NCBI GenBank assembly: GCA_034421135.1
Contig: DAOUKQ010000110.1
Location: 1,104-65,103 of the forward strand
DNA from: Dehalococcoidia bacterium
Lineage (GTDB): Bacteria > Chloroflexota > Dehalococcoidia > Bin125
DNA length: 64,000 nucleotides
Direction: 5' to 3'
The position numbers and the translations under genes are program-made. The notes beneath the pieces were generated by a model that did no database searches, was not told the DNA's origin, and saw only the letters and a list, made by a program, of their open reading frames with translations. This document shows, piece by piece, positions 2,404 to 44,830 of the stretch; within the stretch, counting starts at the first letter, position 1, and the number at the start of each line of letters is the position of its first letter.

Positions 2404-2548
2404 GTCGTCATCCTCGCACGTGGCTGCACGTGGTCGACGCGCCTGCGCAGCGCGTTATCACGATATGGAGCGCCGCGAGAGGCGTCAAGAACGCCCGCAT
2501 CAATGCCGCCGGCGTCGCGAGCGCGGATGAATCCTCGTCGACGCGGAC

Positions 2549-2925
2549 CAAGCGGGTCCCCGAACAAGTCGGGGACTGGATTGACTCCCTTTCCCCGAGG
2601 AGACTTGCGCGTAATCCCTCTCCGATCCCCTCTCCCCGCGGGAGAGGGTTAGGGTGAGGGCCTCCGGTGGCCCGGATGAGTGACGATGACCAGATAGGCA
2701 GTGCCCGCCGGACCCTCACCCCAGCCCTCTCCCGGAGGGAGAGGGAGTAAGACCCCAGAGGTTTACGCGCAGGTGTCCCCTGGGAGATGGCGGGGGTGAG
2801 GGTCCGGCGCTCGCTTGCCATGCCGCGGAAGGCCCTCACGCTCACCCCCCGTGCCAGGCACGAGGCAGGCTTCTTCCTCAGGGAGGGGGGACCGGAGCCG
2901 AGCAGGTCCCCGAATGAGTCGAGGT
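2549..2925. repeat. Composite MITE-like nested-palindrome repeat (copy A)
   Basis: Contains gtccccgaacaagtcggggac, then ggagacttgcgcgtaa…tttacgcgcaggtgtcc enclosing the long hairpin gggagagggttagggtgagggcc…ggaccctcaccccagccctctccc. Further degenerate gggtgagggtccggcg modules follow. Homologous to copies at 15197, 19446, 22211, 53303, 60866 and 62378. Confidence 0.6.
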
Positions 2926-2949
2926 CTGAGTCGGCGGAGTCGTCCCAAG

Positions 2950-3954
2950 TCATCTGTGTTCGGGGACGGACGCCGCCTCAAGGTCGATGTCGTGTTCCGT
3001 CGTTCCGGATTCGTCGACTGCCGAGCAATCGAACACGGCCGCCCACATCGTCGTGCCGCGTGGTGGGTGGATGTCCCGCACGATGAACAGGTACTCAGAA
3101 GCCGGCTGGCCTGTCCAATAGCTTGTCTGTCGCTGATTGCGCCACAGCCATACTGCGTCAACCGAACTGGAATGCGCCTGGTCGGAGTTGATCACCTTCC
3201 AGCGGAATGCCGGGTAACCGTTCGGCGCAACTTCCTCCTCGGGCCACCTGCTCCAATCCGGCTCAGGGTCCGGATTGCCCTCAAACGGGCTGACTGAATC
3301 GAGCCGACAGCTCCGCGCGATGTCTATGAGCGTCTGGTGTTGGTTGGTGTGGGGCATTCCGGCAGGAACAGTGACGTGCTCGCTGAATGTTCGCAACAAG
3401 CTTGCCGGCGTCTCGCGGATTTCGATCTCGACTGCCGACGTCTTCAGCCAACGATTGTGGTTTGCCGGGTCGATGATCGCACTCCGTGATAGGCGCCGCC
3501 GCTCGGGATGGATAGGCTCGCCGTCGTGCACGATGGCAAACCAGATTGAACGATCGGCCTCAATCCACGCCGTCACACTGAGCTCGATCGGAACAGTGCC
3601 AAACCCCGGAGTCGCCCAAAGATCAGCCGAAGCAGCATCGTCTTCATTGGCCGGGTTTGTTGCTCCCGCAGGAGTGAAGGGCGCATGAAACACGACCGGC
3701 GAACTCGTCACCCAACGCTTCCTCTCAGTGTGGGTGAGGATGATCTTCCTACGCTCGGGCAGGATTGGTTCGTCTTCGTCGTCGTACTCAATCCCAACTT
3801 CCACCAGATTCTTGCCCAGCAGTTGCACAGCGACCCTGACGGTCAGAGTCGAATCGCCGGGCTGGTCCTGAGCGCTTGAGAAACCGGAGAGACCAATCGT
3901 CGTCCCAATTGTCATGGCGACGAGGACCAGTGCTGCCAAGAACTTACCGGACAT
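2950..3954 (-). CDS. secreted/lipoprotein-like hypothetical protein
   Basis: The start was trimmed to MSGKFLAALVLVAMTIGTTIGLSGFSSAQ…, a signal-peptide-like N-terminus. The ORF-track N-terminal extension would run into the SDR gene. GC is about 57-60%, lower than the flanks. No recognisable motifs. Confidence 0.55.
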   Translation of the reverse strand: MSGKFLAALVLVAMTIGTTIGLSGFSSAQDQPGDSTLTVRVAVQLLGKNLVEVGIEYDDEDEPILPERRKIILTHTERKRWVTSSPVVFHAPFTPAGATNPANEDDAASADLWATPGFGTVPIELSVTAWIEADRSIWFAIVHDGEPIHPERRRLSRSAIIDPANHNRWLKTSAVEIEIRETPASLLRTFSEHVTVPAGMPHTNQHQTLIDIARSCRLDSVSPFEGNPDPEPDWSRWPEEEVAPNGYPAFRWKVINSDQAHSSSVDAVWLWRNQRQTSYWTGQPASEYLFIVRDIHPPRGTTMWAAVFDCSAVDESGTTEHDIDLEAASVPEHR

Positions 3955-4046
3955 CTGCGACTCCTCTCTCGATCCGCGCAATCCTGTTACCACGCGGAGT
4001 GCTATGCGAGACCAGACTCGGGCAAGGGAGGCGAGGCTGGGGCGGC

Positions 4047-4820
4047 TTACTCGTCGAAGCTCTTGCGAGTCCGGGGGCGCACTGCGCCGTACTTGCGCAG
4101 GTCGGCGATGGTGACGATTCGGCCGGTCCATTCCGGGCCCTGGGCGACCATCCAGAGGCAGGCGTCGGACATGATGATCGGGTCCTCAAAGTCCATCTCC
4201 TTGGCCCGCTCGCCGAGCGTGAAGGCGTAGCCCTCGCTCCAGACCGAAAGTTCCAGGCGCAAGCAGTTGACGGAGATACCGGTGCCCTTGAGATCGCTGG
4301 CCAGCGACTCGGACATGGCTTCCAGCGCGCGCTTGGTGGTCGTGTAGCTGGCGCGGCCGAATTCGGGGCTGACCGACGCGCCGGATCCGATGTTGATGAC
4401 CGCGCCGCCGTCGCCCTCGGCCATCTTGGGCGCGACCGCGTGGGTCAGATAGAAGGGCGCGTTGACGTTGATCTCGACGGCCAGTCCCCACAAGTGACGA
4501 CCGGATTCGAGCGCTTTGCCCGGCGGCGCAATCGCCGCGTTGTTGATCAGCACATCAATGCGGCCGAAGCGGTCGTATGTGTCGGCGATCGCTTTGTCCA
4601 GGTCTTCGACCTTGGCCAGGTTGGCGCCAATCGGCAGGCATTGCTGTCCCGCTTCCTCGACGAGTTGCGCCGTCTCGTTGACGGTGCCGGGCAGCTTGGT
4701 CGGCGTGTCGGCGGTCGAGCGGGCGACGGCGGCGATGTCGTAGCCGGCCTGCGCGAAGTCCACTGCAAGCTGCTTGCCGATACCTCGGCTCGCGCCGGTG
4801 ATGAATGCGACTTTGGCCAT
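4047..4820 (-). CDS. SDR family NAD(P)-dependent oxidoreductase
   Basis: N-terminal TGASRGIG Rossmann motif and 257 aa, typical of short-chain dehydrogenases. Confidence 0.85.
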   Translation of the reverse strand: MAKVAFITGASRGIGKQLAVDFAQAGYDIAAVARSTADTPTKLPGTVNETAQLVEEAGQQCLPIGANLAKVEDLDKAIADTYDRFGRIDVLINNAAIAPPGKALESGRHLWGLAVEINVNAPFYLTHAVAPKMAEGDGGAVINIGSGASVSPEFGRASYTTTKRALEAMSESLASDLKGTGISVNCLRLELSVWSEGYAFTLGERAKEMDFEDPIIMSDACLWMVAQGPEWTGRIVTIADLRKYGAVRPRTRKSFDE

Positions 4821-15196: not shown

Positions 15197-15250
15197 GGCC
15201 CTCACCCCAGCCCTCTCCCTCAGGGAGAGGGGGTCAGCGACTGAGGTTTT
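15197..15250. repeat. MITE-like repeat fragment (copy B, half element)
   Basis: ggccctcaccccagccctctccctcagggagagggggtcagcgactgaggtttt. It carries the ccctctccc/gggagaggg palindrome and the ggtgaggg module. It lies in the divergent intergenic region between the hydrolase and pepN. Confidence 0.45.
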
Positions 15251-15253
15251 GAC

Positions 15254-17833
15254 ATGCCAGACACGACGACGGACACATTGAATGTGCTGAGCGAAGCCGA
15301 AGCGCAAGAGCGGGCTGGGCGCGTGTCTGGTGTTGGGTACACGCTGGAGCTGAGCTTGACCAAAGGATCGCCAAGCTATGAAGGATCGCTGAGCGTTCGC
15401 TTTGCGCTCTCGGATCCGTCGGCCGGTACGTTCCTCGACTGCACGTCGAAATCGATCGACTCGCTGACGGTCAACGGTTCGACGGTCGATGTGAAGCATG
15501 AGCGCAATCGGTTGTATCTGGACGGCGCCGACCTGGCAGCGACGAATGTGGTCGAGATTTCGTACACCAACGAGTACGACCACATTGGCGCCGGGTTGCA
15601 CCAGTTTGTCGACCCCGAGGACGGCGAGGAGTACCTGTACACGCACTTCGAGCCTTATGACGCGCACCGCTTGCTGCCCTGCTTCGACCAGCCCGACATC
15701 AAGGCGTCGCTCGATCTGACGGTGACCGCTCCGACTGAGTGGGAAGTCGCAGCCAACTATCCGGTGGTGTCGTCATCAGACGCCGGCGCGGGCCGAACGA
15801 CGCACACTCTCACCGAGACTCCGCGGATCTCGACGTATCTGTTTGCCTTCATCGCTGGACCGTACAAGCGCTACGAAGACACGTGGTCGGACGCGGCGGG
15901 GGAGACGTCGCTGGGTGTGCTCTGCCGGGAATCGATTGCTCCTTACTTCGATCCGGACGAGTTCTTCCAGGTCACGCGCGACGGGCTGACGTTTTTCTCG
16001 GAGTTCTTTGACTTCCGCTATCCGTTCGACAAGTACGACCAGGTCTTTGTGCCCGAGTTCAACATGGGCGCGATGGAGAATGTGGGCTGCATCACCTTCT
16101 CGGAGCGGATGATCTTCCGCGACCCGCCGACGGAGATCCAGCGGCTGAACAGAGCCGAAGTCGTGCTGCACGAGATGGCGCACATGTGGTTCGGCGACCT
16201 CGTCACGATGCGCTGGTGGAACGACCTCTGGCTGAACGAATCGTTCGCGACCTACATGGCCTATCTGGCGATGGAGCACGCGACGCGCTGGTCGGAGAGC
16301 GCCTGGTCGGCGTTCCATGCGCGGATGAAGGCCTGGGCGTATGAGCAGGACCAACTGCCGACGACACACCCGATCGCGGGCGATGTGCCCGACACCGATG
16401 CGACGTTCCTGAACTTCGACGGCATCACCTACGGCAAGGGCGCGGCGGTGCTGAAACAGCTCGTCGCCTTCCTCGGCGCGGATGGCTTCCGCGACGGGAT
16501 GCGCGACTACTTCCAGACGCACGCCTGGGGTAACACGACGCTGGCGGACTTCCTGGCGGCGCTGGAGCGCGGGTCGGGCCGCGAACTGGGGCGCTGGTCG
16601 GAGGCCTGGCTGGAGTCAGCGGGGGTCAACACGATCGCTCCGCAATGGGATGTCGCCGAGGGCTCGGTCAACTCGTTCACGATTCAACAGACCGCGCCGA
16701 CGGAGCATCCAACGCTGCGTCCGCACCGCACTCAGATCGCCGTCTACGACCGCTCCGACGCCGGACCGCAACTGCGCGATGCGCAGCCGGTCGACATCGA
16801 CGGGGCGTCGACGGTGATTGAGGAGTTGTCGGGCGCGCCGGCGCCGGCGGCGGTGTTCCCCAACCATGACGACCACGCGTTCGCCAAGATCGCTCTGGAT
16901 GAGCGCACGCTGGCGTTTGTCCAGGAGGAGCTGGATCGATTTCCGGATGGCTTCCAGCGGTTGCTGCTCTGGCACACGCTGTGGGACATGGTTCGCGACC
17001 AGCAGTTCTCGGCAGCCGAATACGCGGCGCTGGCGACCGACAAGCTGGCCTCGGAGCACACGCTGGAGATCGCACAGACGGTGGCCTACAACGCCTTGCA
17101 CGCGGTCGGTTCGTATCTCCCGGACGACATGCGTCTCGAGAGCGCTGCCGGGTTGTACGCCTTCGCTCGCGAGCAACTGTTCGCCACGTCCGAGCCCGAT
17201 TTCCGCATCATGTGGTCTCGCGTGATGCTGAGTTCCGCGCAGAGCGTCGAGCACATCGCCGAGGCGCTGTCGCTGGTCGACAACGGCACCGGGATCGATG
17301 GTTACGAGCTTGACCAGGACATGCGCTGGTCGCTGATCACCAAGGCGACGGCCTATGGACTCGATGGCGGCTTTGAGCGACTAGAGGCTGAGCTTGAACG
17401 CGACGGTTCCGACCGCGGGCGTCGCGCCGCGGAGCAAATCCGAACGTCTCGGAACGACGCCGACGTGAAGTCGGAGGCCTGGAGCCGCTACCAGGAGGAC
17501 ACGGACACCTCGCTGCAGATGCTGACCGCATCCATGCACGGGTTCTGGTGGAAGCCGCAGGCCGAGCTGCTCACGCCGTACATCGACCGTTTCTTCGACG
17601 AGATTGAGGACGTGTTCGAGAAGAAGGACAAGGAGTACGCCTCGCGCTTCTTCGGCGCGCTGTATCCGGGACAGATGGAGCCGTCGGATCAGATCATCGA
17701 CCGATCGGAGGGGATCCTGCAGGGACTCGGACCGGAGCAGCCGGTCCTCGCGCGGCAACTCCGCGAAGCGGTCGACGAAGCCAAGCGAGCGCGGGCGTGC
17801 CGGGAGTTTGCCAGTTCTCAGGTCAGGAGTTAG
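15254..17833 (+). CDS. pepN: aminopeptidase N (M1 family)
   Basis: 859 aa. HEMAHMWFGDLVTMRWWNDLWLNESFA is the HEXXH-(18)-E gluzincin signature, and GAMEN is also present. Confidence 0.9.
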   Translation: MPDTTTDTLNVLSEAEAQERAGRVSGVGYTLELSLTKGSPSYEGSLSVRFALSDPSAGTFLDCTSKSIDSLTVNGSTVDVKHERNRLYLDGADLAATNVVEISYTNEYDHIGAGLHQFVDPEDGEEYLYTHFEPYDAHRLLPCFDQPDIKASLDLTVTAPTEWEVAANYPVVSSSDAGAGRTTHTLTETPRISTYLFAFIAGPYKRYEDTWSDAAGETSLGVLCRESIAPYFDPDEFFQVTRDGLTFFSEFFDFRYPFDKYDQVFVPEFNMGAMENVGCITFSERMIFRDPPTEIQRLNRAEVVLHEMAHMWFGDLVTMRWWNDLWLNESFATYMAYLAMEHATRWSESAWSAFHARMKAWAYEQDQLPTTHPIAGDVPDTDATFLNFDGITYGKGAAVLKQLVAFLGADGFRDGMRDYFQTHAWGNTTLADFLAALERGSGRELGRWSEAWLESAGVNTIAPQWDVAEGSVNSFTIQQTAPTEHPTLRPHRTQIAVYDRSDAGPQLRDAQPVDIDGASTVIEELSGAPAPAAVFPNHDDHAFAKIALDERTLAFVQEELDRFPDGFQRLLLWHTLWDMVRDQQFSAAEYAALATDKLASEHTLEIAQTVAYNALHAVGSYLPDDMRLESAAGLYAFAREQLFATSEPDFRIMWSRVMLSSAQSVEHIAEALSLVDNGTGIDGYELDQDMRWSLITKATAYGLDGGFERLEAELERDGSDRGRRAAEQIRTSRNDADVKSEAWSRYQEDTDTSLQMLTASMHGFWWKPQAELLTPYIDRFFDEIEDVFEKKDKEYASRFFGALYPGQMEPSDQIIDRSEGILQGLGPEQPVLARQLREAVDEAKRARACREFASSQVRS

Positions 17834-18663: not shown

Positions 18664-19419
18664 ATGGAGCGCTTTCCCGAGCAGTCATGGGATCCGCTGG
18701 ATGACCGTGTCCAGGGCTGGTTGTCGAGCGGGACCGTGATCGACGGCGCGCGGATTCCCTATGCGTCGAACTACGTGTTCCTGCTGGAGCTGCAGCACGA
18801 CGACGCTCCGACGCTGGGCTATGCGGTGTACAAGCCGGGCCGGGGCGAGAATCCGCTCTGGGATTTTCCGCCGAATCTGTACCGGCGCGAGGTCGCGGCG
18901 TACCGGCTGTCGGAGGCGCTGGGCTGGGATCTGATTCCGCCGACGATTGAACGCGCCGACGGCATGGAGTACGGCGTCGGATCGCTCCAGGCGTACATCA
19001 CGACCGACTACAGTTGTACGTTTTTCGAGCTCAGAGAACAGTACGCCGACGACATGCGCCGCTTCGCTCTCTTCGATTGGTTGAGTAACAACGCCGATCG
19101 CAAGGGCGGTCACATCCTCAAGGGCGAAGGCGATCAACTGTGGGGCATCGACAACGGTCTCTCGTTCCACCAGGACGAGAAGCTGCGCACCGTGATCTGG
19201 GACTACGCCGGCGAGCCGATCGAGCCGGAACTGCTGGCCGACGTGGAGCGGCTGATCCCCCGGCTGGAAGAGCAAGGCGACGCCGCAGCGTCCCTGTCCG
19301 GCTTGCTCAGTCCCGAGGAGATCGAGATCTTGCGCTTACGCGCCGAGCTTGTGGTTCTTGAAGGTCATCTCCCAGAGCCGCCTGCAGGGCGGCGCTCCTA
19401 CCCATGGCCGCTGATCTAG
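18664..19419 (+). CDS. hypothetical protein with lipid/protein-kinase-like catalytic motifs (SCO1664-family-like)
   Basis: 251 aa. …DWLSNNADRKGGHIL…GIDNGLSF… resembles a PI3K/PI4K-type catalytic loop plus DFG-like motif. Family assignment is from memory and not verified. Confidence 0.5.
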   Translation: MERFPEQSWDPLDDRVQGWLSSGTVIDGARIPYASNYVFLLELQHDDAPTLGYAVYKPGRGENPLWDFPPNLYRREVAAYRLSEALGWDLIPPTIERADGMEYGVGSLQAYITTDYSCTFFELREQYADDMRRFALFDWLSNNADRKGGHILKGEGDQLWGIDNGLSFHQDEKLRTVIWDYAGEPIEPELLADVERLIPRLEEQGDAAASLSGLLSPEEIEILRLRAELVVLEGHLPEPPAGRRSYPWPLI

Positions 19420-19445
19420 CGGTCGGGAAGAAATGAACGATTTGG

Positions 19446-19696
19446 CCTCTTCTCTCCCTGGAGACCTGCGCGAGAACCGCTGGGCTCTTGCTCCCTCTCC
19501 CATTAGAGACTTGCGCGTAAACCGACCGGGTCCAGTCCCCGACTTGTTCGGGGACCCGCTCGGCTCCCCGTCTCGTACCTGTTGTGTCCCCCGTAGTGCC
19601 GAAAGGGAGCGGGTCCCCGAACAAGTCGGGGACTGGGAACAGTGCGCCATCGCAATGTAGAACGGGTTTACGCTCAGGTCTCCACCGGGAGAGAGG
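19446..19696. repeat. MITE-like nested-palindrome repeat (copy C)
   Basis: Outer ctccctctccc…gggagagagg arms. TIRs gagacttgcgcgtaaacc…ggtttacgctcaggtctc. Inner gtccccgacttgttcggggaccc…gggtccccgaacaagtcggggac hairpins. Confidence 0.6.
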
Positions 19697-19793
19697 ACCG
19701 GAACGGGTTGTTCGTGCGGGTCACCGCCGAGGGATCGACGCCGTTGGTGTGGGCTAACGTTGACGCTGCCGGTGGACATCGGGAGGTTGAACT

Positions 19794-22193
19794 ATGTCTG
19801 AGCGCGCCCTGGACGGACTATTGGTCATCGATCTGAGCACTGGACTCGGCGGCGCCTACGCGTCAAAGCTGCTCGCCGACCTTGGCGCTCGCGTGATCCT
19901 AGTCGAATCGCCGGACGGCTCCGAACTGCGCGCATGGGGCGCGGACGACAAGGCGTGGGGCGGGCCCTGGGCTCACCTGAGCGGAGGCAAAGAGTCGTCT
20001 GCGCCGGCTGATATGGCCTCGGCTCGGCGTTTGCTCGCCGGACTTTCGCAGGCGGCGGACGTGGTGATTCTCGACGAGCGTTCATATTGGCGGACCGCGC
20101 TACCGAAGGTGTTGCCCGAGCGCGTGGTCCGCGTCGAGATGTCGCCCTGGGGCGCAGATGGACCGTATGCGGGATGGCGCGGCTCGGAGATCGCGACCTG
20201 GGCGATGGGCGGCTACATGTTCTTCACCGGCGACCCGAACGGCGAGCCGCTGATGCTGCCCGGAGGCCAATCGGAGTTGCACGCGGGAGTACACGCGGCG
20301 ATGGCCGCACTCACGGCGATTCGGGAGCGCAAGCGCTCGGGCCATGGGCAGACGGTCGAAATCTCATCCCTGGAAGCGAATCTCTCGGCTCACGCGTGGC
20401 TGATCTCGTCCTGGATCGCTAGCGGCGTGCCGCTCAACCGGGTACCGCACGACTTCACGAAGACGCGCGACGGTTGGGCGCTGTTCATGCGCGCTGTGCC
20501 CAACCCGAACATCTTCCTGCTGATCGATCAGCCGGAGCGGATGGAATCGGTCGAGATTACCAATATCGACGAGTGGCGCGGTCAACTTGCTCAGCTCTAT
20601 GAAGATGTCGAGGCCTGGGCGCAGGATCACGATGCAGTGGAAGTCGCGACGCTGGCGCAGGAGCTGCGCATCGCCTGTACGCCGGTGCTCGACGCGCAGG
20701 GATTGGACGAGAACATCCAGCTCGCCACGCGCGGCTGGTGGGAACAGGGCTCCGACGCCGAGTGGGACGAACTGCGCTTCCCCGGCGCTGCCTACATGAT
20801 GTCGGCGACGCCGGCTGAGCGTCAGGGTCCGGCGCCGGCGCTGGGCGAGCACACGGAGTCGCTTGAGCGGGAGTTCGCACAGACCAAAGCGCCTCAGCCG
20901 CCGCCGGCGATGGCGACCACCGACCTGCCGCTCGCCGGAATGCGCGTGGTCGAGCTGACCGGCAACTGGGCAGGACCGATCGTGGGTCGTCACCTGGGCG
21001 ATCTGGGCGCCGACGTGATCAAGCTCGAGTGGGCGGCGCGACCGGCGACTCGGGCGCTGTTCATGCCCGGTCCGACGCAGGACCCGCAGAAGTACCCCTA
21101 CGACCGCGCGATGTACTTCAACCTGCTCAATCGCAACAAGCGCGATCTCGTGGTTGATCTCTCAGCCGCGGAGGGCAAGCAGATCTTCATGGAGCTAATG
21201 CGCGAGGCCGATGTGTTCGTCGAGAACAACTCGGCGCGGGTGATGCCCAATCTGGGCTTGGACTACGAAAAGGTGCGAGCGGAGAATCCGCGCATTATCT
21301 ACGTCTCGATGTCCGGCTTCGGCGCGACCGGCCCGTGGCGCGATTGGTCGGCGTACGGCTCGAACATTGAAGCGTCCTCGGGACTGGCTTCGGTCACCGG
21401 CTACAACGCCGACCAAGTACGGCGCACACCGCTCTTCTACGCCGATCCGGTCTCGGGCAATCACGGAACCGTCGCCATCCTCGCAGCGCTGGAACACCGG
21501 GATCGATCCGGCGAGGGTCAGTACATCGACGTGGCGCTCAACGAGGCGGGCGCCGCCTACTTCTTCGAGTCGCTGATGGCGTATCAGGCATCGGGCGAGA
21601 TCATGCGTCCGAACGGCAATCGCGATCGCCGTTTCGCTCCGCAGGGCGCATATCGAGCGATGGGCGAAGACTCGTGGATCGCGCTTTCGGTGCAATCGGA
21701 TGCGGACTGGTCGGCACTGTGTCGCGTGATCGGACGAGAGGACCTGTTGGCCGATTCGGAACTGGCGACTCTGGAGGGTCGCATCACGCGGCATGACGAG
21801 CTCGATGCGGCAATCACGGCCTGGACGAGCGAGTTCGAGCAGTATGAAGCGGCTTGGGCGCTGCAACACGCGGGCATCTCGGCGGCGCCGATTCTTGCCA
21901 ACTGGCAGGTGCTGCACGACCCCCACATCCACGAGCGCGGCTTCTATCACTGGGTCAACCACGCGGTGATCGGCGTCTATCCCTATCCGAGCTGGCCCTG
22001 GCAGTTCAGCCGCACCAAGCCCTCGATCCGCCGAGCCGCTCCCCGATTCGCGGAGCACAACAGCCAGGTGCTCGCCGAACTCGGCTACGACGACGAGCAA
22101 ATCGCGGAGCTGTACGCGTTGGAGATCATGTCGGACGTCCCCACCGCCCCGCTGCTGATCGCTCGCGGCGGGTTCACCTCATCGGATGACTGA
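19794..22193 (+). CDS. fused tandem CoA-transferase family III protein (two CaiB/BaiF domains)
   Basis: 799 aa. The N-terminal domain (…LVIDLSTGLGGAYASKLLADLGARVILVE…) and C-terminal domain (…MRVVELTGNWAGPIVGRHLGDLGADVIKLE…) each resemble a full CaiB unit. Confidence 0.85.
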   Translation: MSERALDGLLVIDLSTGLGGAYASKLLADLGARVILVESPDGSELRAWGADDKAWGGPWAHLSGGKESSAPADMASARRLLAGLSQAADVVILDERSYWRTALPKVLPERVVRVEMSPWGADGPYAGWRGSEIATWAMGGYMFFTGDPNGEPLMLPGGQSELHAGVHAAMAALTAIRERKRSGHGQTVEISSLEANLSAHAWLISSWIASGVPLNRVPHDFTKTRDGWALFMRAVPNPNIFLLIDQPERMESVEITNIDEWRGQLAQLYEDVEAWAQDHDAVEVATLAQELRIACTPVLDAQGLDENIQLATRGWWEQGSDAEWDELRFPGAAYMMSATPAERQGPAPALGEHTESLEREFAQTKAPQPPPAMATTDLPLAGMRVVELTGNWAGPIVGRHLGDLGADVIKLEWAARPATRALFMPGPTQDPQKYPYDRAMYFNLLNRNKRDLVVDLSAAEGKQIFMELMREADVFVENNSARVMPNLGLDYEKVRAENPRIIYVSMSGFGATGPWRDWSAYGSNIEASSGLASVTGYNADQVRRTPLFYADPVSGNHGTVAILAALEHRDRSGEGQYIDVALNEAGAAYFFESLMAYQASGEIMRPNGNRDRRFAPQGAYRAMGEDSWIALSVQSDADWSALCRVIGREDLLADSELATLEGRITRHDELDAAITAWTSEFEQYEAAWALQHAGISAAPILANWQVLHDPHIHERGFYHWVNHAVIGVYPYPSWPWQFSRTKPSIRRAAPRFAEHNSQVLAELGYDDEQIAELYALEIMSDVPTAPLLIARGGFTSSDD

Positions 22194-22210: not shown

Positions 22211-22420
22211 CTTGCTCCCTCACCCAAAGGAGAGTTGCGCGTAAACCGACCCGGTCCCGTCCCCGACTTGTTCGGGGACCCGCTCCCGTTCGGCACTACT
22301 GGGGATCTACCAGGTACGAGACGGGGAGCCGAGCAGGTCCCCGAACAAGTCGGGGACTGGGAGCAGTGCGCCATCGCATTGAAGCTCGGGTTTACGCACA
22401 GGTCTCAACAGGGAGAAAGG
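22211..22420. repeat. MITE-like nested-palindrome repeat (copy D)
   Basis: Same termini as copy C (gagagttgcgcgtaaacc…ggtttacgcacaggtctc). The central ~50 bp is inverted relative to copy C. Confidence 0.6.
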
Positions 22421-22433
22421 ACTGCACTGAGGC

Positions 22434-25232: not shown

Positions 25233-25946
25233 ATGGTCACAACCACCGATCAGGCAGACGCCAGGGCTACGGACCTGAACACGCCAATGCCGCAGCAGAT
25301 CAGCTTGACCGACGCACTGACGGCGCCAGACGATCCGATCGTGCTGCGCCTGCCCGCTCAGTGGCGATTGACCGATGACGCGTTCTTCGACTTTTTTGAG
25401 CTCAACGATCCATTGTCGTTCGAACGAACGGCGGAAGGAGATCTCGTCATCGTCCCTCCGCCATCAGGCCCTAGCCCTCGGATAGGACCGCGAATCAGCG
25501 CCCAGCTCGTTGAGTGGATCGATGCGGGAGGAGGAGGCGTCGTTGCGGACAGCAGTGGCGGCTACAAGCTGGGCGAGACGCCGCCGACGGGAGAGGAACA
25601 GAAACAACCGACGCGCATTCCCGATGTGTCCTGGATTCCGGACGAGCTGTTCGCGAGTCTCGATCCCGATGAGATCCTTGATGATGTCCCTCGTGTCTGC
25701 CCGCCATTCGTGGTCGAGATCATCTCTGCAAGACAAAGTGTGGGGCCTCAGCAGAAGAAGATGACCGAGTGGTTGAGCTACGGCGTGTTGTTGGGATGGC
25801 TGTTGGATCCGAAGCGGGGCAAAGCCTGGATCTACAGAGCCGGGCAAACCGCACCGGAAGAGTTGGATCGTCCAGCCACGCTTTCGGGCGAGCGCGTGCT
25901 GGAAGGGTTCAATTTGGATTGCTCGGCGGTTTGGGATCTCGAGTAG
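25233..25946 (+). CDS. Uma2-family (DUF820) putative endonuclease
   Basis: 237 aa with …VCPPFVVEIISARQS…WIYRAG…, the Uma2 pattern. It is in tandem with a paralogue. Confidence 0.8.
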   Translation: MVTTTDQADARATDLNTPMPQQISLTDALTAPDDPIVLRLPAQWRLTDDAFFDFFELNDPLSFERTAEGDLVIVPPPSGPSPRIGPRISAQLVEWIDAGGGGVVADSSGGYKLGETPPTGEEQKQPTRIPDVSWIPDELFASLDPDEILDDVPRVCPPFVVEIISARQSVGPQQKKMTEWLSYGVLLGWLLDPKRGKAWIYRAGQTAPEELDRPATLSGERVLEGFNLDCSAVWDLE

Positions 25947-26005
25947 CTGCAACATCGGCGCTCGCAACCGGCGTATCCTGACTCGCAAGTGTCGCGGAGA
26001 TCCTC

Positions 26006-26689
26006 ATGGTCACTACCCCAACGAAGCCGCATGTCGCTCACACGCCAGTGACTCCGGCGGATGATGCCGTTCCAGTCTCTGCAGATTCGCTGCTGCTGCG
26101 CCTTCCCGAGCAGTGGAAACTCACCGACCGCGCGCTGTCGGAAATTGCCGGCCTGAACGATCTGCTCTTCGAACGAACCGCGGAAGGTGATCTCGTTGTG
26201 ACACTCCCACCGCTTGGCCGAGCGCCGCGAGTCGGCGTGGAAATCAGCGCCCAGATTCGCAACTGGATGAGGGACGGCGGCGGCGGTGAGGTCTCGGACA
26301 GCAGCGGCGGTTTTCGCCTCGGTGACGTACAGGACGATGACGAGGATCGAACGGGACAAGTGCTCGTCCCCGACGTTTCTTGGCTCAGTCCTGCTCAAAT
26401 CGCAGAATTCGACGAAGACGCAGTGGACGAGCGCTATCTGCCGATCTGTCCGGAACTCATCGTCGAGATCATCTCGGCCAGGCAACGCGTGGCAGACCAG
26501 CAAGGCCGCATGGCCGAGTGGATGGGCTTCGGCGCGAGGCTTGGTTGGCTGATCGATCCGCAGCGCAACAAGGCCTGGGTGTATCGAGTAGATCGAGACG
26601 AACCGGAAGAACTGGACCGACCCCCGAGCCTGTCGGGCGAAGACGTTCTGGCCGGATTCGAACTCGATTGCTCGCACATCTGGCGCTGA
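26006..26689 (+). CDS. Uma2-family (DUF820) putative endonuclease
   Basis: 227 aa with …ICPELIVEIISARQR…WVYRVD… It is a paralogue of 25233..25946. Confidence 0.8.
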   Translation: MVTTPTKPHVAHTPVTPADDAVPVSADSLLLRLPEQWKLTDRALSEIAGLNDLLFERTAEGDLVVTLPPLGRAPRVGVEISAQIRNWMRDGGGGEVSDSSGGFRLGDVQDDDEDRTGQVLVPDVSWLSPAQIAEFDEDAVDERYLPICPELIVEIISARQRVADQQGRMAEWMGFGARLGWLIDPQRNKAWVYRVDRDEPEELDRPPSLSGEDVLAGFELDCSHIWR

Positions 26690-32781: not shown

Positions 32782-34080
32782 TCAGATGAGCGTGTTGCGG
32801 AAGTCGGGATGGGCAATCAGCCGCAGCGCATCGGCGCGTTGGCCGAGCGTCCGACCTGAGAGTTCCGCCATGCCGAACTCGGTGACAATCCGGTCGGCCA
32901 GCGTACGCGGCGTGGTCACGACCGCCTCCGGGTCGAGGCTGCGCACAATCCGCGAGATTTTGCCGCGCGCTGCCGTCGAGGGCATGGCCACGACGGAGAC
33001 GCCGCCGTTCAACATCGCGCCGGCGGCAAAGTCCGGCTGACCTCCGGGTCCGGAAATCTGGCGCGATCCGAGCGACTCGGCGTTGATCGTTCCGTCCAGC
33101 GCGACCTGGACCGCCGAGTTGATGCCGACAAAGTTGGTCTGCTGCGCGAGAATCTCGAGCGAGTGCGTGTATCCCGCCGGCGCCATGCAGACGGACTCGT
33201 TGCGGTCCAGCCAGTGGAAGAAATCTGCGCTGCCTGCGGCTTCGGTCGTCACGATCAGCTCAGGCGCGGTCGCCTTGCGAGCGCCGGTCAGCGCGCCGCT
33301 CGCGACCATCCCCATGACGCCGTCCGAGATCAATCCCGAGTGAACGCCCAGGTCGCGACGGTCGCTCAGCATTCCCATGATCGCTTCGGGCACTCCGCCG
33401 ATCCCGAATTGCAGCGTGGCTCCGTCGGTCACCAATTGCGCGACTGCCGACGCGATCTCACGCTCCAGCGGCCCCGGCTCGGCTCGGCGGAGCTCGAGCA
33501 CCGGACTGTCCATCGGCACGAGCCAGTCAAACTCCTCGCGCCGCAATTCGGCGGCACCGAAGGTGTAGGGCAGATTCCGATTGATCTGTCCGATCACCAG
33601 GGGAGTGGTGCGGACCACATCGACGATGCCGCCCACGGACGTCCCTAGCGAGTACAACCCTTCGGGACCAGGCTCCGAGACCTGGACCAGCACCGCGTCG
33701 GCCGGCATCGCGCCGTCGGGCCGGAACAGCCCCGGCACCTGCGCGTACGTCGCGGGAATGTGGTCGAGCGCTCCCGCGGCCTCAACCTTGCGCAACGGTC
33801 CGCTGGTCTGGTAGGTCAAGAAGCGGAACGGCGCGTGCGGATGGTCGAGCGGCGCGACGTGCTCGAAGAGGTTGCCCGTCGCCAGCTCCAGCTTGGACCA
33901 TCCATCCCGGATCGAGTCCAGCGCATCCAACAATCCCACCGGAGTCGCCGACATCGGAGGCACAACCACCCGCGAGCCATCGGGAATCTCCCGCAGAGCT
34001 ACCTCAGCCGTCCCCTCGCGAGTCGGTCGTGGCGCCGATCGAGGCGGCAGATAGTTCTCGAAGCTAGGTAACAGCATCAT
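32782..34080 (-). CDS. acetyl-CoA hydrolase/transferase family protein (4-hydroxybutyrate CoA-transferase-like)
   Basis: 432 aa. …SGPGGQPDF… is the conserved CoA-transferase motif of this family. Confidence 0.85.
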   Translation of the reverse strand: MMLLPSFENYLPPRSAPRPTREGTAEVALREIPDGSRVVVPPMSATPVGLLDALDSIRDGWSKLELATGNLFEHVAPLDHPHAPFRFLTYQTSGPLRKVEAAGALDHIPATYAQVPGLFRPDGAMPADAVLVQVSEPGPEGLYSLGTSVGGIVDVVRTTPLVIGQINRNLPYTFGAAELRREEFDWLVPMDSPVLELRRAEPGPLEREIASAVAQLVTDGATLQFGIGGVPEAIMGMLSDRRDLGVHSGLISDGVMGMVASGALTGARKATAPELIVTTEAAGSADFFHWLDRNESVCMAPAGYTHSLEILAQQTNFVGINSAVQVALDGTINAESLGSRQISGPGGQPDFAAGAMLNGGVSVVAMPSTAARGKISRIVRSLDPEAVVTTPRTLADRIVTEFGMAELSGRTLGQRADALRLIAHPDFRNTLI

Positions 34081-35194
34081 TCGTATCTGCTAACAGCCGG
34101 ATTTCACGTGGATTCCTTAGCTCATGCCTTCTCCCCAAGTGGTACACATCGGCTGTCAGGCTCACTCTCACTTGCTTTTGAAACGCCTCGATCACGGTGT
34201 CATAGTCTGGCTGTTCGAATGTCACTGCGAGTGTCTCCGGCAGATCAGTCCGCTCAGGCACGATATGTGCAAGACCGTCGGCATCTTCAGGCCGACGTTT
34301 GAGGAGCACTACGTCGCCGGTGATCTCCTCGCCGAGCAGTGGCGCCCGGCTACGCAGATACACCCGCGCATCGTTCAAGACATCTGCGGTCTCCTGGCGG
34401 AATCGATACTGGGTGGCTGGCGAATCACTCGGATGGATCGGGGCCCAAGCAAGATCGATCCTCACATCGCTATGCTCAGCCAATTGAGCGATTGCTCCGC
34501 AGAGGTTGGCACTAACGCCGAATGACTCGGATTCGTCGAATGCGCTGAGTCCTCCTTCTTTCATTGCTGTAGAAACTGCAAGTTCGGTCGTCTTTAGCCC
34601 TTGATCCAGTTTCCGCGTAACTCGCCTCGCGAAAGGAAGCATCGGAACCAAGCTTCCTTGGAGTTTTGGAGGAACGGGCGAGTGGACGATTAGCGCAAAG
34701 TCATCGAAGTAACTGGGTAGCGTGGAAACAGTCTCTAGGTAATCGGAGACTCTTTTCGGAACTCGACCGCTGAAGGCAGGACTTGGACGCTCAACCGACC
34801 TGCCAGCGCTCATTAGAAGGTCGTAGGCGCTAGATGCGAGATCCATGGCTCCGTGCAGCGAGATTACGTCTTCAGCGCTGCGCGAGCCTGAAGAGAAACG
34901 CACGGTATCCGATCCTGCTGAGACAAGGCGGTGAAACGCCTCGAGTTCTGAGACTTCCTCTGTCTGGGACAAGACCCGGAGCGTTTCAAACATGTTTCGC
35001 GCATAGCCTGCGCCCGCGTCGCGTTGAGGAACCAAAATCTCCCAATGACGACCCTCGACTTCCTTTCCGAAAATCCAGGCGCGCTGTCTCCAGTTGCCCT
35101 CTTCTGTCCACCCTCGAGATTTGAGGTGCGCAAGGACGTTCGCGGAAGGAATCGAAGCCAATGCTGCTGGGTCCCGGATCTCAACTCTCATCAC
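34064..35194 (-). CDS. hypothetical protein, 376 aa, no recognisable motifs (low-GC island gene B)
   Basis: Start ATG overlaps the stop of the upstream DUF4365-like gene (ATGA at 35191-35194). GC is about 50% against ~67% in the flanks. Confidence 0.6.
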   Translation of the reverse strand: MMRVEIRDPAALASIPSANVLAHLKSRGWTEEGNWRQRAWIFGKEVEGRHWEILVPQRDAGAGYARNMFETLRVLSQTEEVSELEAFHRLVSAGSDTVRFSSGSRSAEDVISLHGAMDLASSAYDLLMSAGRSVERPSPAFSGRVPKRVSDYLETVSTLPSYFDDFALIVHSPVPPKLQGSLVPMLPFARRVTRKLDQGLKTTELAVSTAMKEGGLSAFDESESFGVSANLCGAIAQLAEHSDVRIDLAWAPIHPSDSPATQYRFRQETADVLNDARVYLRSRAPLLGEEITGDVVLLKRRPEDADGLAHIVPERTDLPETLAVTFEQPDYDTVIEAFQKQVRVSLTADVYHLGRRHELRNPREIRLLADTNDAVT

Positions 35195-35673
35195 AGCAGT
35201 CCTTGTTGGGCTTGACTCATCAGGCTGTTTAGCCCCTCCTTGTCAAACACATTAGACAATGGGAGGACGACCGTGCGCGTGAATCGATTCTCAGTGGGTG
35301 GCTCCCCCTGGAGCGGCAGATAGTACGCGCAGTGTCTCAGACAGAGCTCACTCTCGGATTGAGACAGCCAATCGGACTCATGTTGCGGCAAGAGGACCAC
35401 CACAAGGATTGAGGGTGCCAGTTCCTCAGGATCACGCAGATCGTTGAAGTTGTCCCTATCAAGAGGAAAATGGATGCCGTCTTGATGCACCAGATCGCGC
35501 GTTGTCGACTTCGCTTGGAAATTGATCAACGGCGTCTGTCTACCCAACGGTCGAATCGTGCCATCAATGCTCTTGTCATCTGCGTCCCAATGCCCTATCT
35601 GGTAGCCGGCCTCTGCAGCGACGGCACGCACATAGGCAATCGAGAACAGCTCGTTTCGCGTGTAGGTGGGCAT
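35191..35673 (-). CDS. DUF4365-like predicted nuclease (low-GC island gene A)
   Basis: Trimmed to MPTYTRNELFSIAYVRAVAAEAGYQIGHWDADDKSIDGTIRP…LINFQAKST. It fits the DUF4365 N-terminal pattern (…T.N..E..S…GW…D.GIDG.I……Q.KST), which is restriction-endonuclease-like. Confidence 0.6.
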   Translation of the reverse strand: MPTYTRNELFSIAYVRAVAAEAGYQIGHWDADDKSIDGTIRPLGRQTPLINFQAKSTTRDLVHQDGIHFPLDRDNFNDLRDPEELAPSILVVVLLPQHESDWLSQSESELCLRHCAYYLPLQGEPPTENRFTRTVVLPLSNVFDKEGLNSLMSQAQQGLL

Positions 35674-35797
35674 TTCCAAGAACGTCCGATTCCAAGTCGT
35701 CCGTGAGATTGGTAACCCTTTACGCCTGGCAGCCAAGCGCGCCGCCCGACTGGTCGGGCGGCGCGCTTCATTGTCGCCGCTTGCGGCGATGGATGGG

Positions 35798-36913
35798 TTA
35801 TGGCTGCGAGATGTCGAGCACGCCTCGGGCAACTTCGCCGGCTTGCATGGCGGCGAAAGCCTCGTTGATCTGGCCGAGCTCGAAGCGCTTCGAGACCAGG
35901 CCGGACAGGTCGAGCTTGCCCTGGCGGTAGAGGTCGAGCAGCTTCGGCATGTGCTCGCGGAAGCGGGTCGAGCCGTACATGCAGCCGATCGCCTTCTTCT
36001 CTTGCAGGAACTCGGGACCGGGGAAGCTGACCTCGGAGCCGAGCGGCATCATCCCGACGATGCAGGCGGTCCCACCGGCGCGGACCATGTCCCAGGCCTG
36101 TCGCGCGGCGTTGACGTTGCCGATCGCTTCAAATGCGATTTCGACACCGACGCCGCTGGTCAGTTCCTGCACGGCCTCGACCGCGTCGACCTCGGCGGCG
36201 TTGATGCGGTCGGTCGCGCCGAACTGTTCAGCCATGTCGAGTTTGTTGTCGAGGATGTCGACCGCGATGATCCGGCTGGCGCCGGCAATGCGGCAACCCT
36301 GGATCACGTTGAGGCCGACGCCGCCGCAGCCAATCACGGCGACGATCGAGCCGCCCGGCACCTTGGCCGTGTAGAGCGCGGCGCCGACGCCGGTCATCAC
36401 GCCGCAGCCGACCAGCGCGGCCTCAGCCGGGGGAATGTCCTCGGGAATCTTGAGTACGCCCGACTGGGTGGTGAGCATGTACTCGCCGAACGATCCGACC
36501 GAAGCCATCTGCACGACCGGACGGCCGTCCCAGTTGAGGCGGTCACGCGCGAGCGCGGCGTCGTTCGGAGCGGGGCACAGGTTCGGCTCGCCGCGCAGGC
36601 ACCAGTAGCAGTCGCCGCAGAAGGGGCGGAAGGACATGATCACGTTGTCGCCGGGCTGGACGTAGGTGACGTCGTCGCCGACCGTCTCGACCACGCCGGC
36701 CGCCTCGTGTCCGAGGACTGCCGGCAGACCGCCGAAGGCCGCCGCCCACTTGCCGTCGACGAAGTGGAGGTCGCTGTGGCAGACGCCCGAGGTCGTCGTG
36801 CGGACCAGCACCTCGCCCGGTTGCGGGTCGCGGACGTTGATGTCGTGCACCTCAAGTACGGAACGGTCGCCGTCCTTGTCCTGATTGGCAGGATCGAAAA
36901 TGGCAGCCTTCAT
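35798..36913 (-). CDS. zinc-dependent alcohol dehydrogenase (MDR family)
   Basis: Trimmed to MKAAIF…. GVCHSDLH, GHEAAGVV and GCGGVG are the MDR motifs. Confidence 0.85.
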   Translation of the reverse strand: MKAAIFDPANQDKDGDRSVLEVHDINVRDPQPGEVLVRTTTSGVCHSDLHFVDGKWAAAFGGLPAVLGHEAAGVVETVGDDVTYVQPGDNVIMSFRPFCGDCYWCLRGEPNLCPAPNDAALARDRLNWDGRPVVQMASVGSFGEYMLTTQSGVLKIPEDIPPAEAALVGCGVMTGVGAALYTAKVPGGSIVAVIGCGGVGLNVIQGCRIAGASRIIAVDILDNKLDMAEQFGATDRINAAEVDAVEAVQELTSGVGVEIAFEAIGNVNAARQAWDMVRAGGTACIVGMMPLGSEVSFPGPEFLQEKKAIGCMYGSTRFREHMPKLLDLYRQGKLDLSGLVSKRFELGQINEAFAAMQAGEVARGVLDISQP

Positions 36914-37648
36914 GTTGGGTCCTTCCCAGGGATTGCATTCCAAACGCCGCGCGCTCCCGCGCAGCCATGGATCATGTTAGGCGAGCGCAGATAAGCGAAC
37001 AACATGCCATGCGCATCGATCCGCCTGTTCCCGAGACTTCCCGCTGGATGCCGCTCCCAGAACCGACATCCAGCGATTCACTCGCTGGTCTCCCAAAGAC
37101 CGGTGACCGGCGGTTGGACCGGCCTCAGGTCTGCGCAGGCGGTCGCGAGATGTCCACCGGTTTGGTTAACTCGCTGTTATTCGTGTGGCGTTTGGCTAAG
37201 AGACTCGATACCCTTAGACGCACAACTGAATATTCGGGCCGAATCTCCGTGAAGTGTGATCACCGACCGGAGAGCGGGGGACCCACCAACTTGGGGTGAA
37301 TGCGATTCACCCGCTCGTCGCCTAACAGGTGAGCATCGGAATCGCACGGCGCGCTCCCTTGCGCCGAACCCGTCAGCTAACCCCGTAGGCGACCGAGGGA
37401 GACGGCGCAGCGGTTCACGAACCGCTGCGCAGGCAAGAACCCGTGCTTTGCGCATGGCTCCATCGGTCCGCCATGCTGTTCCACCACCGGAGCGGCAATC
37501 GGCCACCGACATGAGAGTCACGCCGGGAGCGACCGCCCGGCGCACTCAGGGGCACGGGTTTCTCGCTCACCCGTCCCCGCCTCCTGGCCGACCCCCGGAC
37601 ATTGCGTCCGGGGGTTCGGTTTATCTGCGCGCTCCACGCAGCGCCCGC

Positions 37649-38464
37649 TCAGCGACCGATGAAGTTCGGCGGGCGCTTCTCGAGAAACGCGCGAGCCGCT
37701 TCCTTGTTGTCCTCGCCGCTGAAGGACAACATCACGTGCGCGCCCTCCTGGTACAGCGAGTCGCTGAGGCTGGAGGTTGCGGCGTAGTTGAGCGTCCATT
37801 TCATCATCGAGAGCACCGCGGTTGGACCTTGCGCCAGTTCGCGGCAGAAGTCCAGGCCCTCCGACATCAGCTCGTCGTGCGGGACGACCTTGTTGACGAT
37901 GCCGAGCGCTTCAGCCTCATCGGCGTTGAGCCGCCGATCAAGCATCAACAGCTCACGGGCGCGGGTATTCCCGACCATGTGGGTCAGGAACCAGGCGACG
38001 CCATAGTCGCCCGAGACGCCGATGTTGCGGAACGCGGTGACGAACCGCGCGCGATCGGAGGCGATTCGGAAGTCGGTCGCTAGACACAATCCCAGTCCGC
38101 CGCCAGCGGCCGGTCCATTGACCAGCGACACCGTCGGCGTGCCCATCTCGCGCAGCATCCCCGAGGTCTGCTGCTGGCTGCGATGACTGCGCCGGTTGAC
38201 GACACCCGGTCCGGGCGGAGGCGCATCGGAGCGGCGGCCCATGTTGTTGATGTCGGCGCCCGCGCTGAATCCGCGGCCCGCTCCGGTCAGGGCGACGCAG
38301 CGGACTTCGGGATCGTCTTCGCAGTCGACCAGCGCCTCCGACAGGCGCTGCAGCAGGTCGTCGCCGAAGGCGTTCATGCGCTCCGGCCGGTTGAGCGTGA
38401 TCAGGGCGACGCCGTCGTCGCGCTTGTCCAGGATGACCGTCGGGTCGCCGTTCGTGTCAGGCAT
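37649..38464 (-). CDS. enoyl-CoA hydratase/isomerase (crotonase) family protein
   Basis: 271 aa with …VALTGAGRGFSAGADI…. Confidence 0.85.
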   Translation of the reverse strand: MPDTNGDPTVILDKRDDGVALITLNRPERMNAFGDDLLQRLSEALVDCEDDPEVRCVALTGAGRGFSAGADINNMGRRSDAPPPGPGVVNRRSHRSQQQTSGMLREMGTPTVSLVNGPAAGGGLGLCLATDFRIASDRARFVTAFRNIGVSGDYGVAWFLTHMVGNTRARELLMLDRRLNADEAEALGIVNKVVPHDELMSEGLDFCRELAQGPTAVLSMMKWTLNYAATSSLSDSLYQEGAHVMLSFSGEDNKEAARAFLEKRPPNFIGR

Positions 38465-43909: not shown

Positions 43910-43926
43910 GTCGTCCTCCATGCGGC

Positions 43927-44730: not shown

Positions 44731-44830
44731 GAAATCGTTCCTCTCACGATTGTCAAACACTCGCGCGAAGAGGCTAACGAATACGCGCAACCTCGGTCAG
44801 CGGTTTAGAATCGACAGAGGAGATTCGCTT

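Follow-up and report, generated by a model that had tools for sequence, protein, structure and literature searches.

Nested-palindrome intergenic repeats in a Dehalococcoidia genome: BoxC pairs and REP-like doublets within a common inverted-repeat frame

Non-coding repeats were analyzed in a 64,000-nt stretch of DNA from a Dehalococcoidia bacterium (GenBank assembly GCA_034421135.1, contig DAOUKQ010000110.1, positions 1,104 to 65,103), hereafter called the window. Seven intergenic loci, labelled A to G, carry a mosaic made of three module families: the known repeat BoxC, also called TM; a hairpin unit R, comparable to repetitive extragenic palindromic (REP) sequences; and a unit T, which brackets the elements as inverted repeats. 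The original prediction, made from the sequence letters, had described one dispersed, structured and non-coding repeat family and offered three labels for it, namely a MITE (miniature inverted-repeat transposable element), a repeat similar to REPs or bacterial interspersed mosaic elements (BIMEs), and a family of small structured RNA genes. Our data support repeats that are dispersed, structured and non-coding, and 'REP/BIME-like' is the best of the three labels, but the supposed single family consists of at least three module families of very different phylogenetic range. The elements are probably selfish DNA of the BIME/REPIN/MITE type that is non-autonomous, forms hairpins and has been reshuffled by recombination. 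BoxC as such was known before; new about it are the Chloroflexota host, a CTG loop, a long conserved spacer and the density. T, R and the element built from both are new members of the REP/REPIN/MITE kind, for which no counterpart was present in the searched literature. The one unusual feature is a shared chassis with interchangeable arms.

Anatomy of the elements

T has the pattern CCCTCTCCC-nnn-GGAGACYTGCGCGTAAACC and forms a unit of roughly 19-45 nt. R (CCAGTCCCCGACTTGTTCGGGGACCCGCTC) is 30-33 nt long and has an 8-bp stem and a 5-nt loop. The BoxC/TM unit combines a C-block and two G-blocks within 33 nt (CCCTCTCCC-n3-GGGAGAGGG-TTA/CTG-GGGTGAGGG), and a fourth module is a central loop with ACCAGATAG. 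Two composite elements of about 190-210 nt are assembled from these modules in the order T-arm-loop-arm'-T'. The Type 1 element (copies A, E, F and G, and a remnant at B) consists of T, TM type A, loop, inverted TM type B and T', and the Type 2 element (copies C and D) of T, R, loop, inverted R and T'. T ends and loop motif are common to both types, and the module order varies from copy to copy. Locus A is a pile-up of a solo R, a full Type 1 element, a degenerate BoxC core over T', and a decayed R together with a Type 2 spacer end.

The four building blocks and seven loci that had been predicted are all present, at or adjoining the expected places. The C/G-rich arms and the long hairpin among these blocks are BoxC, which had been overlooked; the second hairpin is the REP-like R, and the sequence resembling a terminal inverted repeat (TIR) is the T unit. 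The assignment of GGGTGAGGG to copies A, E, F and G and of GTCCCCG to C and D, with both in A, was correct, and inverted-repeat matches agree with the inverted orientation of F and G relative to A and E. The positions of the loci and their parts are as follows (window coordinates; strand; description; basis).

Locus A, 2549-2925
2550-2579, minus: solo R, REP-like hairpin (CCAGTCCCCGACTTGTTCGGGGACCCGCTt); R pattern with 1 mismatch
2587-2617, plus: left T of copy A (CCCTTTCCC-cgag-GAGACTTGCGCGTAATCC); T pattern match and copy alignment
2628-2660, plus: BoxC/TM type A of copy A (loop 2 = TTA); exact match to the published pattern
2661-2712, no strand: central loop of copy A, conserved ACCAGATAG, common to Type 2 loops; alignment
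2713-2745, minus: BoxC/TM type B-like of copy A (loop 2 = CTG), inverted partner of 2628-2660; pattern and consensus hairpin
2760-2790, minus: right T' of copy A (GGTTTACGCGCAGGTGTCC and GGGAGATGG foot); T pattern and inverted repeat
2780-2850, plus: second, degenerate BoxC core hairpin over T' (GGGAGATGG-cgg-GGGTGAGGGTCCGGCG ... GGCCCTCACGCTCACCCC); repeat search and blastn
2894-2928, minus: degenerate R and Type 2 spacer end, 89% identical to 22325-22359; repeat search and nhmmer (E=0.001)
Locus B, 15197-15250
15199-15231, minus: copy B, solo BoxC/TM type B-like; exact pattern match
15232-15264: decayed T' of copy B, reaching the predicted start codon at 15254; direct repeat (60%) and alignment
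Locus C, 19446-19696
19446-19486, plus: extra tandem T upstream of copy C (GGAGACCTGCGCGAGAACC at 19460-19478); T pattern
19487-19698, plus: copy C, Type 2, with T 19493-19523, R 19532-19561, loop 19562-19606 (45 nt), R' 19607-19636 and T' 19665-19695; repeat search, fold, T and R patterns
Locus D, 22211-22420
22211-22422, plus: copy D, Type 2, with T 22217-22247, R 22256-22285, loop 22286-22330, R' 22331-22360 and T' 22389-22419; repeat search, T and R patterns
Locus E, 53303-53490
53303-53490, plus: copy E, Type 1, with T 53305-53335, truncated type A 53346-53375, loop, type B-like 53425-53457 (minus) and T' 53472-53490; repeat search, blastn, BoxC and T patterns
Locus F, 60866-61025
60866-61016, minus: copy F, Type 1, inverted relative to A and E, with T 60867-60885, type B-like 60899-60931 (plus), loop and type A 60983-61015 (minus), no T on the A side; inverted repeats, BoxC pattern, alignment
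Locus G, 62378-62563
62378-62563, minus: copy G, Type 1, orientation opposite to A and E, 63 nt downstream of tRNA-Pro, with T 62379-62397, type B-like 62412-62444 (plus), loop and type A variant 62497-62551 (minus); inverted repeat, BoxC and T patterns

Repetition and genomic location

A repeat search over the entire window, which has a GC content of about 64%, connected exactly these seven loci by direct and inverted repeat families. When the loci were compared with the window by blastn, copy A was 83.8% identical to copy E across 185 nt and 91.5% to copy G across 117 nt (inverted), copies C and D were 89-93% identical across 75-102 nt, and copy E matched both F and G at 98-100% over 43-52 nt, in inverted orientation. 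Seven exact matches to the BoxC pattern stand against 0 expected (0 in 100 dinucleotide-preserving shuffles of the window). With up to 3 mismatches allowed, the same type of shuffling gave an expectation of 0.02 for the T unit (10 observed) and 0 for the 30-nt R unit (5 observed).

All copies are intergenic, as had been predicted: the flanking open reading frames (ORFs) have a coding-type GC content at third codon positions (GC3) and Pfam hits. According to the GC3-based gene map and the Pfam annotation, every copy lies between ordinary metabolic genes, the neighbors including DUF1538, M1 peptidase, CoA-transferase III, NADH dehydrogenase 51K, catalase-peroxidase, rhodanese, MR_MLE enolase, tRNA-Pro and MFS. 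Convergent, co-directional and divergent spacers are occupied alike, and no positional rule relative to genes is apparent. ORFs overlapping the repeats, e.g. 2408-2953 (minus) and 19336-19779 (minus), are spurious, and the recurring pseudo-peptides GDPLGSPSRTCCVP and VPEQVGDW, already suspected as such, are direct translations of copy C. A 393-aa ORF adjoining locus A (2950-4131, minus) failed the GC3 coding filter, had no match in Pfam or PADLOC, and is an uncertain gene.

BoxC outside the Proteobacteria

BoxC was first found in Escherichia coli in the 1990s as a 56-bp repeat of about 32 copies (Bachellier et al.), and successive re-descriptions gave it the synonyms PIT ('potential intrastrand triplex'), TM_ECO and HPGQ (Hoyne et al. 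2000; PMC4666352; PMC5100583). The published BoxC/TM_ECO pattern is CCCTCNCCC-N3-6-GGGNGAGGG-N3-GGGNGAGGG (Holder et al. 2015, PMC4666352). In the same work, 23 copies, all intergenic, were counted in the 4.6 Mb of E. coli K-12 MG1655 and 3610 copies in 262 proteobacterial genomes; type A units have the loop TTA and type B units the loop CCG, and all five inverted pairs consist of one A and one B unit (PMC4666352).

The three 9-nt blocks of the window units are identical to MG1655 entries in the table of Holder et al., while the loops vary. Most BoxC units of the window are paired, one of type A with one of type B in inverted orientation, and the pair with its spacer of about 50 nt makes up the long hairpin described earlier; it is complete in copies A and F, whereas the A unit is truncated in copy E and a variant in copy G. 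When 2620-2750, which holds the A/B pair of copy A, was used as blastn query, 4065 of 5426 E. coli genomes were matched, with 80-95% identity at the best place per record and about 91% over both arms among the top matches listed. The query also matched 532 plasmid records, and the genera named in the output are all Proteobacteria. From the matches to the published pattern and the E. coli hits it follows that these blocks belong to a known repeat family. BoxC thus occurs here outside the Proteobacteria, the phylum of its catalogue, and its range is cross-phylum.

The units of the window share with E. coli BoxC the blocks CCCTCTCCC / GGGAGAGGG / GGGTGAGGG, the strictly intergenic position, a second loop that is either TTA (type A) or a C/G-rich triplet (type B), the frequent inverted A/B pairing, a copy number that varies strongly among close relatives, and unstable loci. 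They differ in the host, which belongs to the Dehalococcoidia (Chloroflexota), the published catalogue being one of 262 proteobacterial genomes, and in the type B loop, which is CTG instead of CCG. An inverted A+B pair is also present in the hrpB-mrcB spacer of E. coli, but there the arms are only 17 nt apart, compared with about 50 nt and a conserved ACCAGATAG of their own in the window. In addition, the pairs of the window are bracketed by the T inverted repeat, unlike those of E. coli, and the density is 7 units in 64 kb versus 23 in 4.6 Mb in E. coli K-12.

The 20-mer GGGCTGGGGTGAGGGTCCGG from the Type 1 core was found once each in 49 metagenome contigs (GC 0.51-0.72) from soil, peat and freshwater, where it is usually preceded by a CCCTCTCCC-n-GGGAGAGGG hairpin. 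Several of these contigs have a variant second arm, CCTTCTCCC-n4-GGGAGAAGG-tGCCCC-n-GGGGC-GGATGAGGG, with a small hairpin between the G-blocks. The type A variant of copy G (62497-62551) contains an inserted small hairpin of the same kind (CCCCGC-cttc-GCGGGG).

BoxC A/B pairs at the center of larger palindromes were also observed in two spot checks outside the Chloroflexota. In Variovorax paradoxus CP063167, the outer repeats are 19-nt perfect repeats, tandemly reiterated in 118-nt arms, and in Azospirillum brasilense p3 they are inverted repeats of 24 nt with 83% identity. The design is like that of the window in having an A/B pair inside lineage-specific outer inverted repeats, although the sequence of these repeats is unrelated to T. 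Given such lineage-specific frames in both genera, the nested-palindrome design may be general. Rhizobial RIME elements may be a further case of nested palindromes around BoxC pairs.

The R unit and its resemblance to REPINs

The exact 23-mer of R occurs 31 times in 26 stretches, and all but one of these stretches come from six Dehalococcoidia metagenome-assembled genomes (MAGs; one genome per species). The remaining match, in Caulobacter sp. UNC358MFTsu5.1 (L019, 5517-5539), lies just past a stop codon and has no CCCAG/CCGCTC flanks; it is probably unrelated, a coincidental terminator-like hairpin. An nhmmer census detected 60 units at E<0.01 in 338 kb of Dehalococcoidia loci, a sample that was chosen for R and hence gives no genome-wide density. 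R is near-invariant across species whose coding DNA differs by about 20% (about 80% nt identity).

R occurs solo, in inverted doublets around a 45-nt spacer, and in tandem mosaic arrays. The 30-nt arms of the doublets are 100% complementary in copy C and 93% in copy D, and the doublet arrangement is also found in the related loci L015 and L026. Sister variants in L028 and L030 have kept the flanks, while the distal stem and the loop are changed compensatorily (GTCCCGGC...GCCGGGAC). Two arrays were seen in the Dehalococcoidia MAG JAJDYG01: L009 (1-1873) has 4-5 head-to-tail R units with a period of 133 nt, each with a second hairpin CCCCGTG-cttga-CACGGGG, and L012 (3469-3650) has a T-R tandem with a period of 98 nt. 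The orientation of R relative to the upstream gene showed a bias of only about 2:1, which is confounded by the tandem arrays, and was dropped as a criterion.

As judged from its sequence, R resembles a REPIN in form. Like REPs, it is an extragenic imperfect palindrome of 30-33 nt that occurs singly and in inverted doublets folding as one hairpin, in tandem clusters mixed with other motifs (L009, L012), with a clade conservation beyond that of coding DNA, and in related variant families with kept flanks and compensatory stem changes (L028, L030). Unlike classical REPs and REPINs, it has no tag and no RAYT gene was found in the inspected sequence; furthermore, its doublets have an extra TIR frame, and BoxC pairs can replace them. 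REP, REPIN and BIME sequences are reportedly mobilized by RAYT transposases (Nunvar 2010; Bertels & Rainey 2011; Ton-Hoang 2012; Di Nocera 2013, PMC3733652).

The T frame and the comparison with MITEs

Copies A, C, D and E, like the elements of L027, L015 and L026, have T on one side and T' on the other, so that both kinds of doublet, BoxC pair and R doublet, are framed by terminal inverted repeats. T was found only in Dehalococcoidia loci; none was present in 285 kb of BoxC-bearing metagenome contigs or in 72,556 plasmids, and Type 2 elements were likewise absent from the plasmids. No T...T' pair encloses an ORF in any of the loci collected. The ends of the elements are blurred because of tandem T units and decay.

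The earlier label 'MITE-like' holds in part. With bacterial MITEs such as Correia/NEMIS, RUP and ERIC, the elements have in common the length of 190-210 bp, the non-coding, multi-copy and intergenic nature, terminal inverted repeats of 19-30 nt, a long stem-loop fold, and presence or absence among relatives. As differences from MITEs, no target-site duplication was recognized, and neither a cognate transposase nor a parent insertion sequence with matching ends was found; unusually for MITE termini, T is also repeated directly in tandem and, together with R, forms tandem arrays.

Turnover at related sites

Syntenic loci of relatives were reached through orthologues of the CoA-transferase gene 19794-22193, which lies between copies C and D. 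The closest relative found is L027, a 12-kb metagenome contig with about 90-95% nt identity to the window; about 19 kb of OZ242948 (titled Dehalococcoidia bacterium) align with the window at about 82% nt identity. Copies occur in several other genomes and metagenomes, so that the possibility, raised earlier, of these being the only ones does not hold.

The content of orthologous spacers differs strongly, which contradicts a strict orthology and fixation of all copies throughout the clade. In L029 (85% protein identity), the spacers flanking the CoA-transferase gene are only 92 and 33 nt long and contain no element, whereas L028, L030 and L082 have other hairpin modules there; different modules were also found in relatives at sites F and G, within which short-read contigs end. 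At the site of the R doublet of copy D, L027 has a BoxC pair instead, with the same T ends and the same flanks, and the alignment of both sequences breaks exactly within the T units. The evidence for this swap of interiors comes from the downstream L027 site alone, which lies entirely within the contig. A truncated Type 1 copy at the L027 5' end adjoins a different gene end whose sequence is present nowhere in the window; this junction may have come about by rearrangement or by misassembly in a repeat, and short-read contigs of relatives do end inside repeats (L027 5' end, L081).

The 45-nt loop of copy C (19562-19606) is inverted relative to that of copy D (22286-22330) and to the canonical loop of L026, while the asymmetric outer frames are in direct orientation. 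The Type 1 interiors that L027 has at these two sites are likewise opposite to each other in orientation. The flipped loops suggest either arm-mediated inversion or orientation-free insertion into a T frame. Turnover of this kind is a hallmark of a recombining repeat population and matches the strongly raised local sequence variability among strains around BoxC (PMC4666352).

Predicted folding and signals of transcription

Folding was computed with Watson-Crick pairing only; triplex formation (PMC4666352) and a G-quadruplex/hairpin switch (Kaplan et al. 2016, PMC5100583) are known from in vitro work. As a single strand, copy C is predicted to fold with -71 kcal/mol (z=-10.2), and z-scores of -5.6 and -2.5 were obtained for locus A and for copy E with its truncated arm. 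Rfam yielded no relevant match to the repeats at the gathering threshold, and at permissive E-values only sub-threshold eukaryotic miRNA hairpins, which any long hairpin would be expected to match. In RNAalifold, no compensatory change was seen among the 42 consensus pairs of five Type 1 copies, and the R stem is nearly invariant in the sequence-only nhmmer census; these covariation tests are uninformative on structure, neither for nor against it, and give no support for an RNA gene. No sigma-70-like promoter or intrinsic terminator was detected in or beside copies B, C and D.

Other known classes of structured DNA were considered and rejected. Intrinsic terminators have a T-run, which does not follow the hairpins, and integron attC sites would require GTTRRRY / RYYYAAC cores, which T lacks. 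The spacers of the 133-nt arrays in L009 are themselves conserved, unlike a CRISPR array, and a dif/Xer site was dismissed on reading the sequences.

Explanation of the elements

As selfish DNA, a composite element would colonize intergenic spacers, form a single long hairpin or cruciform when single-stranded, as DNA or RNA, and be copied in trans by an enzyme whose gene lies elsewhere in the genome. For R doublets, an HUH/Y1 RAYT-like enzyme that acts on single-stranded hairpins would be the most economical guess, and for the T frame a TIR-binding transposase. Copies would decay in place, and homologous or template-switch recombination between them could lead to arm exchange, loop inversion and tandem T units. 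The elements would have no dedicated host function. Several observations weigh against this explanation. Pfam annotation of the window genes revealed no transposase, RAYT or integrase, and tblastn with E. coli RAYT and IS608 TnpA queries revealed no Y1 transposase in the window and 30 loci, where the related loci amount to about 0.36 Mb or a few percent of each genome, which makes this result a lead and not proof of absence. According to the alignment of units, R has conserved flanks (CCCAG...CCCGCTC) and neither the GTAG nor the CGTC tag that defines classical REPs at the palindrome end (Di Nocera 2013, PMC3733652). With no tag and no Y1 transposase found, membership of R in the RAYT-REP family is therefore not established. 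No consistent target-site duplication was recognized as a direct repeat flanking the elements, and the empty sites of L029 are too diverged for fixing element boundaries. The window copies are 84-93% identical, so that proliferation was not recent or gene conversion homogenizes them. Finally, E. coli BoxC was reported to be without association to known mobile elements (Holder et al., PMC4666352).

The main rival explanation, which we consider unlikely but serious, is that the repeats are non-B DNA or structural elements maintained by the host. BoxC would act via intrastrand triplex formation or G-quadruplex/hairpin switching, both demonstrated in vitro as mentioned, the R and T hairpins would be protein-binding, mRNA-stabilizing or termination-assisting sites, and copies would arise at intergenic sites prone to hairpins, through recombination, gene conversion and template switching during replication. 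That no transposase was found favors this explanation. The identity of the 9-nt BoxC blocks in Chloroflexota and E. coli, with varying loops, argues for a constraint on sequence or structure that goes further than simple pairing; with its four tracts, GGGAGAGGG-CTG-GGGTGAGGG is a canonical G-quadruplex motif, and the stems are invariant rather than covarying. Breakpoints of the interior swap within T and a loop flipped between perfect 30-nt arms are signatures of recombination. On the other hand, copy number and content are very unlike in close relatives, empty sites are without obvious consequence, neither a positional rule with respect to genes nor the U-tract signature of terminators was seen, and in E. 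coli no link of BoxC to gene function or regulation was found (Holder et al., Hoyne et al.; PMC4666352). Moreover, recombination alone leaves the colonization of new, unrelated spacers unexplained. Small structured RNA genes or cis-regulatory RNAs transcribed from the repeats, the third of the labels proposed originally, are very improbable. The predicted hairpins are indeed very stable, and transcription together with flanking genes is known for many REPs and MITEs of bacteria (PMC3733652), but there is no Rfam family at threshold, no compensatory pair among the 42 and no promoter or terminator at copies B, C and D, both orientations relative to the neighboring genes occur, and the module order varies. 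A chance similarity of GC-rich, low-complexity sequence or an assembly artefact has a practically negligible probability. It could draw on the GC content of 64%, the G/C-tract motifs and the relatives' short-read contigs that break in repeats; yet alignments of 84-93% identity extend over 100-185 nt, shuffles lead to expect 0-0.02 units where 5-10 were observed, and the same modules are present in independent assemblies, closed long-read chromosomes among them.

A further step can be suggested tentatively, although we regard it as doubtful: BoxC would serve as an exchangeable arm in non-autonomous, REPIN-like elements with a TIR frame, where BoxC pairs and REP-like doublets take each other's place on one T-loop-T' chassis, as at the fixed site that differs between relatives of 90-95% identity. 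To our knowledge, no dispersal mechanism of BoxC has become known since the 1990s. If the arms are interchangeable, BoxC would be the cargo or structural core of cross-phylum nested-palindrome mobile elements, and one structure-recognizing enzyme class would serve all of them, which could be found by searching for genes flanked with T or R. T-framed swappable arms offer a concrete handle on the mobilizing enzyme. BoxC has been studied as a former of triplexes and G-quadruplexes and as a marker of genomic instability, and its presence in Chloroflexota with unchanged 9-nt blocks sharpens the question of motif constraint and spread. For practical purposes, masking of the repeats improves the annotation of MAGs, in which they cause spurious ORFs and broken short-read assemblies (L081, L027).

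Other features of the window

A c-di-AMP (ydaO/yuaA) riboswitch aptamer was detected at 37227-37406 (plus; 83 bits, E=7e-18). No convincing co-oriented ORF follows downstream, the next confident gene (37649-38464) being an enoyl-CoA hydratase on the opposite strand, and the riboswitch may be an orphan or the regulator of a small uncalled ORF.

The sole low-GC patch of the window (34064-35832, minus; 57% vs 64%) contains two paired genes that match PDC-M02, a candidate defence system of PADLOC (B, E=3e-81; A with DUF4365, E=9e-50), and probably represents a defence islet gained by horizontal transfer.

At 42285-44790 (minus), three paralogous genes, each about 820 nt long and putatively a short-chain dehydrogenase, stand in tandem with 71-80% nt identity. 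Two tandem ORFs at 25233-26689 (plus) correspond to Uma2 (PF05685) genes of L027, which has three. Both groups are local amplifications of genes and have nothing to do with the repeats. The window also has two toxin genes with a PIN domain (VapC-like), at 45046-45483 (plus) and 48082-48782 (plus), the second being preceded, with a 4-nt overlap, by a 90-aa ORF that is likely the antitoxin.

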